A stretch of 64,000 nucleotides of DNA from Escherichia coli (GCF_003790525.1 NZ_CP033635.1); one strand, 5' to 3'; positions 19,948-32,710 are shown, numbered from the stretch's first letter. Translations and numbers: made by a program. Notes: generated by a model not told the origin, from the sequence alone.

Positions 19948-19966
19948 TGGTGTCCCTGCAGAAATC
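19948..19966. repeat. Degenerate copy of argW 3' end (putative distal att of the satellite)
   Basis: TGGTGTCCCTGCAGAAATC versus the argW 3' end TGGTGTCCCCTGCAGGAATC at 32636-32655 (17 of 20); about 12.7 kb from the tRNA. Confidence 0.5.
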
Positions 19967-20183
19967 ATCTTAATTATTATTATGTTGATTTATATGTAGT
20001 TTATTTTTGATTTTTTGTTTTTGTACCCGTTTTGTGCCCGTTTTATTCGATTCCCAATTTAAACTTCGATTCTAGAAAGGTGAGTAGGGGAGGTTATCAT
20101 TTCATGTATCATTATTGTAGACACAGAATAATTACTCGCCTATCCTCACTGTAGACACACAATAGATACAGGAGTTAACCCAC

Positions 20184-20432
20184 ATGCGCACACAGGTTGT
20201 ATTGCAAAAATGGGGTAATAGCATTGCCCTTCGACTAACGGGAAACCTTAAAACCGTTCCGGGGTTTTCAGTGGGTGATATCGTCAACGTTGAAATTAGT
20301 GAAAAGGGGCTTTTTGTAGAAAAGCCTGCACGCCGTCGCCTGAGTGAAGCCGAATTACTCGCCGGGATAACGCCAGTTACAGCGCACGCGGACGAAATTG
20401 CCACCCCATTCAATGAGGAGGTTGATTACTGA
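20184..20432 (+). CDS. MazE/PemI-family antitoxin (AbrB/SpoVT fold)
   Basis: 82-aa ORF MRTQVVLQKWGNSIALRL...; stop overlaps the toxin start. Confidence 0.75.
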   Translation: MRTQVVLQKWGNSIALRLTGNLKTVPGFSVGDIVNVEISEKGLFVEKPARRRLSEAELLAGITPVTAHADEIATPFNEEVDY

Positions 20433-20776
20433 TGTTTGTACCTAAGCGTGGTGATATTTGCTGGCTGGATTTTGAGCCGCAGAAAGGAAAAGAGAGCGGA
20501 AAGTATCGCCCGGCACTCATACTATCCCATGAGCAATATAACCGACTCACCGGGCTTGTCATATGCTGCCCCATAAGTACGAGCATACGAAATGCTCCCA
20601 CAGAAGTTCCGGTAACAAATCTGGACGCCCCCAGCGTGGTAGCAACCACACTCATTCAAACCCTTGACTGGCGTCAGCGGAAAGCGCGCTTAATCACAGA
20701 GGCAGAAGATGGGGTATTTAATGATGTGCTTGAAAGAGTCATTACCCTGATTGGTGGAGAGCATCTGCTTAAGTAA
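20432..20776 (+). CDS. MazF/PemK-family toxin (endoribonuclease)
   Basis: 114-aa ORF MFVPKRGDICWLDFEPQKGKESGKYRPALILS..., PemK/MazF-like N-terminus; coupled to the upstream antitoxin. Confidence 0.75.
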   Translation: MFVPKRGDICWLDFEPQKGKESGKYRPALILSHEQYNRLTGLVICCPISTSIRNAPTEVPVTNLDAPSVVATTLIQTLDWRQRKARLITEAEDGVFNDVLERVITLIGGEHLLK

Positions 20777-20819
20777 AAGGAGGGCTGAGAAGCCCTCAAC
20801 GTTACCAGAAATTTCCTTG

Positions 20820-30362: not shown

Positions 30363-30584
30363 TTAAGCCTGAAAACGTTGTTGTTTTCTTTCTTCTATCC
30401 AGTCGATAATTTCCTCTTCAACCCATGCAACCGCGCGAGGGCCTATTTTTATTGGTTTGGGGAATATATCAGATTTTATATCTTCGTAAATTCGAGCTCT
30501 TGATCTCCCTGTGATTTCAATGACTCTGGGGAGTCTTATTAATTTTTGAATCCGCCTTTCGCTGGTCTGTGAGTATGCTGACAT
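30363..30584 (-). CDS. AlpA-family transcriptional regulator / excisionase-like protein
   Basis: 73-aa ORF MSAYSQTSERRIQKLIRLPRVIEITGRSRARIYEDIKSDIFPKPIKIGPRAVAWVEEEI, typical AlpA HTH. Confidence 0.85.
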   Translation of the reverse strand: MSAYSQTSERRIQKLIRLPRVIEITGRSRARIYEDIKSDIFPKPIKIGPRAVAWVEEEIIDWIEERKQQRFQA

Positions 30585-31194
30585 ATTGGCCTCCTGTATA
30601 TGCTGACATTTTACGTTAGCTCACAGCGGGAGCATGTAAGATCTCGCGGTCGTCTGCGGGACGAGAAAAATCATAAACAACGAAAAGCGGATTTGTAAAT
30701 CAGGTCGATTTTCAGGCGGGGTTGACATGGACAGTGAGATTTGTTCCATGTGTGCAATATACATTTTAGGACCACTTTAAGCCACTTTAAACCGCCAGAA
30801 AGCGACAAAGAATAACAAGTTAGTGCCAGAAAGGTTTGCTGACTTACCCTTTTAGGTACCAGAAAAAGCCCTTTCAGGTCGGTGTAATGCTTGTGAACGC
30901 TGAAATAGTGGTTTCTGAAAACAAAAAAAGAATTGAAAATGTGATAAATATCACAAAATAATATCGATAAAATAGTTTGATTTTTTTGTTTTTATTAAAA
31001 GCACTGGTTAATTGTAAAAAATTAATTATAAATCAAATGGATATATCTGTTTTTTTAGGGTAAAAATCACTAGGTGCTTTTAGCAGTATCTTATTCTATT
31101 GATTTTAAAAGATAAAAAAATCGGCGTGTCCACATATTGTCCACGCCTTGAGTTTAATTCAGCCGCTTGGGATAGTTTAGTTTGTTGAGTTGAT

Positions 31195-32457
31195 TCAGTC
31201 TGTTTCGTTAGTCCATTTAAAATCATAGGGGGAAATATATGCCGCCTTGCAGGTGTCGAGATAATCAGCCCACCATTGCAACATTCGGCGGCGTTCCTGC
31301 ATATGTTCAGCTCTGTGAACGTATGCAGCCCGGACACTGCCTCTTTCCCTGTGACTCATCTGAAGCTCAACGGCTTCTCTTGTCCACCTGCCTGACTCTG
31401 TCAGCGCCGAACAGGCCATGGTCCTGAATCCGTGACCACAAATATCTTTTTTTGTGTCGTATCCCATGTGGCGTAATGCCTTGTTAATGGTGTTTTCGCT
31501 CATTGGTTTTATCTGGTAATGGTCGCTGGGGAAAATAAACACTTCATCACCGGATATATTTCTTATATCGTCAAGAAGCTGCATGGCCTGAGTGGGTAAA
31601 GGGATGGCGTGAGGGGTTCCCATTTTCGTTCCACGATATGAATATTTTACGCCTTCTATTTTTTCGCGTTCTGCTGGTATTACCCACATTGATTTATCAA
31701 AGTCAATTTCATTCCAACGAGCAAAACGCAATTCACTTGAGCGAATAAAAATTAATAAATTTAATTTTAGTGCAAATTGCGTTAATAACCGTCCATTCAT
31801 CTTATGGTGGTAATCATTTATTTTGCCAAGTAATTCAGGTAATCGCTCAAGGGGAAGAGCGGGGCGATGTTTGGTTTTATTAGTTTCGATTGCACCGTTC
31901 AGTTCCTGCGCTGGATTGTATTTAATCATTCCATTCTGTACAGCGTAGCGCATAATGGCGTTCATTCGCTGCTTGTTACGTGATGCTGTCTCAAGCACTC
32001 CTTTGTCTTCCATTTTGCGTAAAGGAATCAGTAGATCCATGGTTGTGATCTCGTTAATTGGCCTTTTACCAAGAATGGGGAAGATGTGGTTTTCCAGGTC
32101 TTTTAAGACTTTTTGCGCGTGCAATTCGCTCCAGCCCTTTTTCCGGCTGTGCCATTCTCTGGCAACGTCTTCAAAAAGCACTATTTGAGGTTTTGGTGTG
32201 TGCAGTGGGTCAATGCCTTTAGCCAGGCTCGCCAGATATTCATCACGAGCGTTCCTTGCCTGTGCAAGTGTTACGGCAGGATAAATGCCTAAAGCTCGGG
32301 TCGTTTCTTTACCGTTGATAACCTTGCGAAAGCGCCAGTATTTTGAGCCGTTGGGGTGAACATAGAGATACAGGCCTTTCCCGTCACGAAGTTTTTTAAT
32401 TTTATTGTTGTCCTTATCTGGTTTGGCGTTACGTACAGCTATATCAGTCAGTTTCAT
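31195..32457 (-). CDS. P4-type tyrosine integrase (IntS/IntA-like)
   Basis: Start taken at MKLTDIAVRNAKPDKDNNKIKKLRDGKGLYLYVHPNGSKYWRFR...; adjacent to the tRNA 3' end. Confidence 0.85.
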   Translation of the reverse strand: MKLTDIAVRNAKPDKDNNKIKKLRDGKGLYLYVHPNGSKYWRFRKVINGKETTRALGIYPAVTLAQARNARDEYLASLAKGIDPLHTPKPQIVLFEDVAREWHSRKKGWSELHAQKVLKDLENHIFPILGKRPINEITTMDLLIPLRKMEDKGVLETASRNKQRMNAIMRYAVQNGMIKYNPAQELNGAIETNKTKHRPALPLERLPELLGKINDYHHKMNGRLLTQFALKLNLLIFIRSSELRFARWNEIDFDKSMWVIPAEREKIEGVKYSYRGTKMGTPHAIPLPTQAMQLLDDIRNISGDEVFIFPSDHYQIKPMSENTINKALRHMGYDTKKDICGHGFRTMACSALTESGRWTREAVELQMSHRERGSVRAAYVHRAEHMQERRRMLQWWADYLDTCKAAYISPYDFKWTNETD

Positions 32458-32635
32458 TATGTTGATCCTCCAGACGGGTACAAATAAAAATCGAACCAAG
32501 CATACCCGCTTTTATACCCATTTTAATATGGGCTTCAGGCAAATTTAACGAGAGAAAATGAGACAATGGGAGATGTTTAACTCATTGAAAGTAAATGGAT
32601 AATGGTTTTTTCTGAGAGGTTGCAAGAAGTTGCGA

Positions 32636-32710
32636 TGGTGTCCCCTGCAGGAATCGAACCTGCAATTAGCCCTTAGGAGGGGCTCGTTATATCCATTTAA
32701 CTAAGAGGAC
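32636..32710 (-). tRNA. argW: tRNA-Arg (anticodon CCU)
   Basis: Reverse complement reads GTCCTCTTAGTTAAATGGATATAACGAGCCCCTCCTAAGGGCTAATTGCAGGTTCGATTCCTGCAGGGGACACCA, 75 nt with CCU anticodon and encoded CCA. Confidence 0.95.

Follow-up and report, generated by a model that had tools for sequence, protein, structure and literature searches.

The window analysed here is a 64,000-nucleotide stretch of Escherichia coli DNA (GCF_003790525.1, NZ_CP033635.1), which carries a 12.7-kb integrative element (19947-32655) at the tRNA gene argW. We regard this element as probably an apparently intact representative of a previously unclassified satellite lineage related to P4, most likely a parasite of P88-like peduoviruses (Xuanwuvirus, P2-like myoviruses). 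P4 is the textbook case of capsid-size piracy. In the element, a gene for a distant homologue of the P4 protein Sid is coupled to a coat protein gene of the P2 gpN family, and a cos region of the P88 type is also present. This combination of an own coat gene, a distant Sid copy and a P88-type cos is undescribed in the searchable literature (most subscription journals lie outside it), where no satellite with a gpN-type capsid gene, no Sid homologue outside P4 and no satellite of P88 was found. An earlier reading of the same DNA, referred to below as the original prediction, had placed a satellite at argW and had recognised no capsid-remodelling genes in it.

The element is inserted in argW, a tRNA-Arg(CCT) gene located by ARAGORN at 32636-32710 on the minus strand. 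Its ends are marked by the following sites.

32635-32655, minus strand: attL core inside argW (tRNA 32636-32710), the tRNA 3' end being ATGGTGTCCCCTGCAGGAATC
19947-19966, no strand assigned: distal att core (attR), repeating the 3' end of argW as ATGGTGTCCC-TGCAGAAATC
20023-20044, plus strand: tandem GT(A/G)CCCGTTTT repeats, putative arm-type sites of the integrase, the second repeat read from the sequence as GTGCCCGTTTT
32502-32524, plus strand: tandem ATACCC(G/A)(C/T)TTT repeats, likewise putative integrase arm-type sites, found by motif count

The two att cores are identical in 19 of 21 aligned columns, with one gap and one mismatch; the 17-of-20 match to argW in the original prediction was thus real but understated. 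This is the only such match to the argW 3' end within the window, and the att mapping proposed earlier returned this single pair. A 12,688-bp insertion unit and the duplicated core, a 20/21-nt direct repeat at the ends, make up the 12.7 kb, close to the 12.8 kb first estimated. In strain HNSQ2209, a 95%-identical element adjoins dsdC and homology to the window begins precisely at the att repeat. Joining the dsdC-side flank of HNSQ2209 to an intact argW gave a query for the predicted empty site, and this reconstructed junction was found in one piece (coverage of at least 80%) in 912 of 5426 complete E. coli genomes, with identity up to 99.7%. The HNSQ2209 comparison and the genomes with an empty argW site therefore demonstrate a discrete insertion with precise ends, and the proposal of a satellite-type integrative element at argW is upheld. 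The closest copy of the element, 99.3% identical, was found in strain GF60 with an insertion sequence (IS) of the IS21 family inside it, and the same element was found in differing chromosomal contexts and att sites. The putative arm-type motif [AG]TACCC[GA][CT]TTT occurs three times in the 64 kb, each time about 140 bp or less from an end of the element.

The late region of the element carries a module of two genes.

20820-22091, minus strand: satellite-clade major capsid protein of the P2 gpN family, 423 amino acids (phrog_70, 1.5e-77)
22091-22801, minus strand: Sid-like protein, 236 amino acids, its stop codon overlapping the start codon of the capsid gene

The coat protein matches TIGR01551 at 3e-39, under the NCBI equivalog cut-off, and is 34% identical to P2 gpN over 345 amino acids. 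Its AlphaFold2 model (predicted local distance difference test score, pLDDT, 80) superposes on gpN of the P4 procapsid 7jw1 with a template modelling (TM) score of 0.75-0.82, and its relation to the capsid protein of the capsid-forming kind of phage-inducible chromosomal islands (cf-PICIs) is a distant one of fold, at 12% identity. Together with homologues of 393-497 amino acids from Enterobacterales it forms a distinct clade; its identity to true P2-like coat proteins does not exceed about 41%, and with the coat proteins of P88 and P2 it is about 35%. An N-terminal extension of about 85-118 amino acids consists of a conserved helical hairpin and then a variable disordered linker. Judged by a ratio of nonsynonymous to synonymous substitution rates (dN/dS) of 0.08-0.10 between element copies, the coat gene is under strong purifying selection. 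Besides the capsid protein, no terminase-like or head-packaging family was found when all open reading frames (ORFs) of the element were searched; genes for portal, protease, connector, terminase and tail are absent from it.

The 236-residue protein has no BLASTP match to P4 Sid and no Pfam, PHROG or NCBIfam family, and its own family has 23 cluster representatives among 1.84 billion proteins. Aligned by hhalign, the profile of this family matched that of the P4 Sid homologues with 85% probability (E 6e-6, 102 columns), across a W...G motif conserved in both families; the probability towards Psu was 0.5%. The AlphaFold2 model (pLDDT 93) has two very long helices, then short ones and a C-terminal helix, and the published description of Sid is likewise one of two long helices followed by short helices (PMC7552001). 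When the model was compared with 350,542 PDB chains by Foldseek, Sid (7jw1_E) ranked first and Psu (3rx6) second. These three concordant, individually modest tests, together with position and length, support the protein as a distant Sid homologue, one that a sequence profile for Sid would probably miss. Homologues of both P4 procapsid proteins (7jw1) would then stand side by side in the element, translationally coupled, with the capsid gene filling the slot after the Sid-like gene. What the original prediction had labelled cargo is this Sid-like and gpN-family module, and its negative statement on sid- and psu-like genes is overturned for sid by the remote-homology and fold tests. For Psu, there was no BLASTP match in the element and no tblastn match in ten related loci. 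Two further candidates were rejected: a gpO-type internal scaffold for the 236-residue protein (hhalign probability 0.1%), and a fused gpO scaffolding domain for the N-terminal extension of the coat protein, which has no significant similarity to P2 or P88-type gpO.

Sid contacts gpN at the 'sir loop', residues 183-224 (PMC7552001). This segment is shortened and divergent in the satellite coat clade, which would fit a Sid-like protein and a coat protein that have evolved as a pair. Where sid and psu came from is still open, and the field itself has flagged the question as key (PMC8628076). A deeply diverged Sid homologue, permanently coupled to a gpN-type coat gene, would indicate that scaffolds of this type are of greater age and diversity than the present definition of the P4 family implies.

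Two further features point to the helper.

23655-23835, minus strand: P88-type cos region, with the core GGTGACGGGGGAACAGC at 23681-23697 and TGCACAA repeats at 23722-23728 and 23794-23820
24612-25616, minus strand: second tyrosine recombinase, of the P2/P88 integrase type, with a full-length identity of 48% to P2 Int

About 167 bp of the window (23655-23821) are about 81% identical to non-coding DNA of P88 and some ten relatives, where the match sits between the partition genes and the portal gene, the position of cos in P2. A core, GCGCGCAGGTGACGGGGGAACAGC, is common to the P88-like phages and the aligned members of the lineage, has TGCACAA motifs upstream and aligns with the P2/P4 sequence GCGGGCGGGCGAGGCGGGGAAAGCAC, which holds their 19-nt cohesive end. 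The 19-nt cohesive ends of P2 or 186 themselves were not found within four mismatches in the window or in the related loci L001, L002 and L005-L009, and a cos of the P2, P4 or 186 type was absent from the same sequences by blastn-short and fuzzy matching. The cos region is overlapped by an annotated ORF (23647-23919, 'hypothetical protein' in RefSeq copies) with a dN/dS of 0.95, and the cos region is 98.5% identical between copies compared with about 95% for neighbouring coding DNA. With a neutral dN/dS, but DNA better conserved than that on either side, this ORF is most likely not a gene.

The second recombinase, already recognised in the original prediction, has 81% identity with Int proteins from P88-like phages of the genus Xuanwuvirus (P88_4B11, Chuche, PhiR44_2, Shae_phiSM) and a dN/dS of 0.09, and occupies the same position in most relatives. 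The corresponding integrases of the satellites (window 24612-25616; L005 4000-4989; L016 5106-6080; L012 7183-8184) differ from one another by about 50%; those of Klebsiella share 80% identity with P2 Int. Depending on the member, an allele is 80-81% identical to the Int of P88 or to that of P2, and the alleles resemble different helper integrases across the lineage. No P88 attP was found beside the second integrase, blastn homology ending within the gene. Its roles could include excision of a helper prophage, use of the helper attB or resolution of multimers. P2-type prophages induce poorly, and a helper-type integrase in a satellite offers a new lead on how satellites handle such prophages.

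The P88-like 5.1-kb region from par through cos and portal to terminase has some match in 1767 of the 5426 E. coli genomes, and a match with at least 80% coverage in 715. The capsid module is present in 56, and a P88-type portal in 34-38 of these carriers compared with 19.5% of the other genomes. The element is also in proportion to such a helper, measuring 12,688 bp against the 35,814 bp of P88 (0.35), just as P4 measures 11,624 bp against the 33,593 bp of P2 (0.35). The cos region and the second integrase point specifically to P88-like peduoviruses, and nothing points towards lambdoid phages; the wider choice of helpers named originally, 'P2-like or lambdoid', is not supported. With this lineage, parasitism of the P4 type would reach P88-like phages, a group with genes in one fifth to one third of E. 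coli genomes.

The module recurs in ten related loci spread over at least five enterobacterial genera: they come from Escherichia (including a second E. coli type), Klebsiella, Pectobacterium, Izhakiella, Ca. Erwinia dacicola and metagenome bins. The coat gene was found in all ten, ogr and a match to the cos region in nine, and a detectable Sid-like match directly 5' of the coat gene also in nine; in the tenth locus, L007, the gene at the Sid position encodes 237 amino acids and is 19% identical. By tblastn, about eight or nine of the ten carry a 77-amino-acid gene on the opposite strand. The block runs cos, ogr, 77-residue gene, Sid-like gene and coat gene, behind a P4-type early region, and the helper-type integrase usually comes directly after the primase. 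The relatives share with P4 the ORF of the cI region (about 50%), epsilon (40-51%; in L009, L013 and L018), the alpha N-terminal domain (34%) and Int (57-71%), and the link from the lineage to P4 is firmer through them than through the window copy. The interval between primase and cos is a variable spot, some members having AIPR and DUF4238 genes there. A set of about 100,000 species representatives yielded seven loci of the capsid-module lineage.

The early region adjoins argW and comprises the following.

31195-32457, minus strand: P4-type integrase, 420 amino acids (53% identical to P4 Int over 417 amino acids, E 1.5e-154; phrog_1)
30363-30584, minus strand: AlpA/Vis-type regulator or excisionase (34% identical to P4 Vis (orf88), E 7e-13; phrog_2790, phrog_66)
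29507-29594, minus strand: C4/CI-type antisense RNA (Rfam C4, 74.6 bits; gathering score 45)
29620-29701, minus strand: isrK-like RNA (Rfam isrK, 50.6 bits; gathering score 50)
29662-29714, minus strand: a1/b1 target sites (Rfam c4-a1b1, 30.8, under the gathering score)
28337-29292, minus strand: four small genes of 99, 72, 62 and 60 amino acids, without family matches, with homologues in relatives
25619-28288, minus strand: Toprim primase with a P-loop nucleoside triphosphatase (NTPase) region, 889 amino acids (phrog_1139, 2e-297; Toprim_2, 1.8e-12; Walker A motif)
24044-24363, no strand assigned: iteron origin, with GGTTACA repeated in the two orientations, an AT-rich core and inverted repeats of 36 nt

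From int through to the capsid gene, the genes share one reading direction, pointing away from argW, in the order int, alpA, immunity region, primase, origin, cos and late module. The P4-type integrase, the AlpA protein (whose product RefSeq also assigns to the AlpA family), the primase-helicase and the iteron origin all agree with the original prediction. The block of small overlapping genes that it described (28337-29806) does contain genes, but also the C4/CI-type antisense RNA and its targets. In RefSeq, an 'Icd-like' ORF (29285-29806) overlaps the C4 and isrK RNAs; because its dN/dS is 0.92-0.99 between element copies, it is probably made up mostly of RNA genes and a leader rather than of protein-coding sequence. 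The C4-icd region of P1 and the CI RNA of P4 have the same immunity design as this C4-type region. The 99-residue gene occupies the position that epsilon has in P4. It was considered as epsilon and rejected, the protein having no Pfam match and no alignment to P4 epsilon; its Pectobacterium counterpart does align. The Walker A region of the primase has a weak DUF5906 match, and similarity to P4 alpha is marginal and local (E 0.002 over 27 amino acids).

The iterons lie 3' of the primase gene, with the second recombinase gene in between. The window has 18 copies of GGTTACA, and thirteen of them crowd into 282 bp (24063-24344), flanking an AT-rich stretch. The 36-nt inverted repeats at 24044 and 24328 were also considered as an invertible switch for the adjoining recombinase, and an iteron origin was preferred because of the 13 repeats and the AT-rich core.

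The late region further carries the following.

23250-23432, minus strand: Ogr/Delta-type zinc-finger activator, 60 amino acids (phrog_603, NF007241)
22966-23199, plus strand: 77-amino-acid protein, on the strand opposite to the module and conserved in the lineage (tblastn; weak CopG/ORF56 hints)
22852-23889, no strand assigned: CGTAATAC octamers, clustered where the capsid module has its divergent promoter, upstream of ogr and next to cos

The activator, as originally proposed, is of the Ogr/Delta kind; its identity is 39% with both P2 Ogr (E 1e-6) and P4 Delta (E 2e-5), and reaches 50% with a P88-like phage's Ogr. The 77-residue protein may possibly, on weak hints, be a ribbon-helix-helix regulator. 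All seven CGTAATAC octamers of the 64-kb window fall within 1 kb (1.15 expected by chance), and they look like operator sites. No Ogr-binding site of the form TGT-N12-ACA was found at the expected place upstream of the capsid module. A motif, TCTGGC-N8-9-CTTACAACAAAAGC, lies upstream of the Sid-like gene in L005, L009, L014 and L017 and again in the P88-like intergenic region between portal and scaffold genes (L010 3250-3300), and is a candidate element of an Ogr-dependent late promoter.

With P4-like satellites, whose helpers are P2 or 186, the element shares a P4-type Int at a tRNA site, Vis/AlpA, antisense-RNA immunity of the CI/C4 type, an Ogr/Delta activator, a protein of the Sid fold, a copy of the helper family's cos, a genome about one third the size of the helper's and an accessory hotspot at one end. 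It differs from P4 in lacking Psu, in a Sid homologue too distant for sequence profiles, in a Delta that is a single Ogr-like unit of 60 amino acids where that of P4 has 166, in a primase that is no orthologue of alpha and in having no epsilon detectable in the window copy. A gpN-type coat gene and an extra helper-type integrase are present, cos is of the P88 and not the P2 type, and the gene order is rearranged into one direction, as in enterobacterial PICIs. According to published work, P4-like elements and phages have no structural genes in common (PMC8628076). SatelliteFinder calls an element P4-like when it has at least five of seven core components (PMC10085698); by our own sequence tests, used instead of SatelliteFinder itself, simple comparisons detect three of the seven P4 markers (Int, AlpA and Delta), Sid is found remotely, and Psu, epsilon and alpha fail. 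P4-like in its proposed working, the element fails formal P4-like membership as currently defined, and elements of this sort probably escape current satellite finders. The label of a divergent satellite lineage given to it originally was right for the opposite reason, since capsid-remodelling genes are present.

The enterobacterial PICI set consists of int, alpA, pri-rep, capsid morphogenesis genes and terS (PMC10085698). The element has the same order of int, alpA and primase/replicase and an origin 3' of the replicase, and lacks a small terminase or an Rpp-type packaging redirection gene (all ORFs searched). With cf-PICIs such as EcCI2 it shares a satellite-encoded major capsid protein of the HK97 fold and, presumably, use of the helper tail. 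These islands encode a full head and packaging set of protease, portal, head-tail adaptor, connector and terminase (PMC10085698), whereas the element has only a coat protein, of the P2 gpN type, and an external-scaffold homologue. Capsid homologues are also encoded by the PICIs SaPIbov5 (Ccm), PmCI172 and EcCICFT073, likewise small integrative satellites that carry int, a regulator and pri-rep; for two of them, SaPIbov5 and PmCI172, small capsids have been reported (PMC6092414). Their capsid families and helpers are other ones, and for none of the three has an external scaffold of the Sid type, an activator of the Ogr/Delta type or RNA immunity of the C4 type been reported. Finally, the immI region of P1 and P7 (c4-icd-ant) and the CI RNA of P4 share with the element a C4-family RNA, upstream a1/b1 targets and then an Icd-like frame; the C4 region of the element, unlike immI, precedes a satellite replication operon. 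RNA immunity acts by transcription termination in P4 and by a translational block in P1.

From these comparisons the following working can be proposed. The element resides in argW, inserted by way of its P4-type integrase and the 20/21-nt att repeat, and there the C4/CI-type antisense RNA would silence the downstream replication operon, as its counterparts in P4 and P1 suggest. When a helper is active, AlpA/Vis and Int would release the element from the chromosome, and its replication from the GGTTACA iteron origin would fall to the Toprim primase and the P-loop NTPase region of that protein. The 60-residue Ogr/Delta-type protein would, by homology, activate late promoters of both helper and satellite. 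The Sid-like external scaffold and the element's own gpN-type coat protein would then assemble small capsids to suit a genome of some 12.7 kb. The helper would contribute what the satellite lacks altogether: the portal, gpO protease/scaffold, terminase, head completion proteins and tail. The helper terminase would recognise the P88-type cos, where the homology is clear, and cleave there to package the satellite.

Sid and gpN suffice for P4-type shells without gpO, and gpO is still needed for viable particles (PMC7552001). By analogy, a satellite that supplies a Sid-like protein and a coat protein could nucleate its own shell yet remain dependent on a helper. P2 escapes P4 by sir mutations in gpN. 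If the satellite pair is matched, redirection of capsid size would be independent of the helper's coat-protein allele, and the element would be a natural test of a satellite that replaces the helper coat while using the helper portal, protease and terminase. Given an active satellite, we put the chance that the shell is made of its own coat protein at about even. More tentatively, the element could be a missing intermediate between P4 and cf-PICIs, in which a co-evolved pair builds a private small shell on the helper portal whatever the coat allele, immune to sir mutations, and the helper-type integrase excises a poorly inducible P2-like prophage; we think it doubtful that all of this holds.

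Several points weigh against a P4-related satellite of P88-like phages. No epsilon homologue was detected in the window copy, and its primase is, by sequence, a member of a Toprim family distinct from P4 alpha and not its orthologue. The portal, protease and head completion proteins of the helper would have to accept a very diverged shell. The P88-like late-promoter motif, clear in relatives, is degenerate upstream of the window's capsid module. GF60, the genome nearest to the window, has no P88-type portal match. The co-occurrence of capsid module and portal (odds ratio 6-9, p about 1e-11 to 1e-14) ignores clonal relatedness, many carriers being related porcine enterotoxigenic E. coli, and was obtained with a chimeric query, by which 38 of the 56 carriers have a second match, at most four of these being possible second copies of the module and the second matches not having been inspected singly. 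For excision and replication, and likewise for packaging and capsid size, the model is an inference.

The element might instead parasitise P88-like phages with a coat homologue that co-assembles with, or poisons, the helper coat, acting on the gpN of the helper in the manner of Ccm, with the Sid-like protein as its partner. SaPIbov5 is a published case of a satellite with a capsid homologue (Ccm) that redirects size or blocks the helper, and PmCI172 a suspected one (PMC6092414; PMC5052747); both the missing portal, protease and connector genes and the altered sir loop would suit such a role. With about 35% identity to helper coats and a novel N-terminal extension, however, mixed lattices are less obvious, and the tight coupling and co-inheritance with the Sid-like partner in all loci suggest a matched pair; we consider this variant unlikely. 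Less likely still, in our estimate, is the case of a domesticated or decaying island that no longer transfers and whose capsid-like genes and MazEF (described below) serve the host only in interference against P2-like or P88-like phages. It would explain why the lineage is so scarce among E. coli genomes and species representatives, why the GF60 and TK3046 copies are disrupted by IS elements and why about one third of carriers have no P88-type portal. Yet int, alpA, primase, att repeats and cos are all intact in the window copy, the same element occurs in different contexts and att sites, cos is better conserved than adjoining coding DNA, the genes are under purifying selection and PADLOC defence models find no match; we take this reading as very improbable. 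A chance mosaic, a P4-like island fused to a P2-like prophage remnant, would account for P2-family or P88-family homologues of the capsid gene, integrase and cos. We disfavour it and give it hardly any weight: the capsid gene belongs to a separate clade confined to the satellite context and retains its low dN/dS, no other prophage genes or pseudogenes are present, and the order of parts recurs across several genera at 30-50% protein identity, a divergence that argues against recent copies of one fusion. A P4-related satellite lineage living on P88-like peduoviruses is accordingly the reading we prefer.

At the distal end of the element lies its only accessory cargo, a MazEF pair (20184-20776).

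20184-20432, plus strand: MazE-like antitoxin (weak MazE match)
20432-20776, plus strand: MazF/PemK toxin (phrog_1936, MazF-like, 6e-27; NCBIfam MazF, 1e-26)

PADLOC defence-system models gave no match in the element, MazEF included. Just 5' of mazE, at 20107-20169, is a direct repeat, TATC(A/C)T(T/C)A(T/C)TGTAGACAC, probably an autoregulatory operator of the toxin-antitoxin pair.

Some copies of the element show further rearrangements. The IS21-family insertion of GF60 (L001 7048-9355) lies between ogr and cos, and that of TK3046 (hit H173) within the module of the Sid-like and capsid genes; these insertions probably disable the two copies or make them too large for a small head. In Izhakiella (L014 12449-13699) and Klebsiella indica (L017 13240-14490), a second P4-type integrase gene follows the capsid gene by about 0.4-1.3 kb, which suggests tandem satellites at one att site. 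One contig from a metagenome bin labelled 'Bacillota bacterium' (L013, QAKE01000006.1) carries a typical enterobacterial member of the lineage, and its label is probably a binning error.

Across the window, the gene context runs evgA, emrKY, dsdAXC, the ipuA/ipuB-UpaE locus, the element, argW, yfdC, mlaA and fadL. The locus between dsdC and the element (8109-19510) holds the tyrosine invertases ipuA and ipuB, a LuxR-type regulator, UpaE (a phase-variable autotransporter of 2637 amino acids) and an OmpH-like gene, and is missing from HNSQ2209 and from the genomes with an empty argW site.

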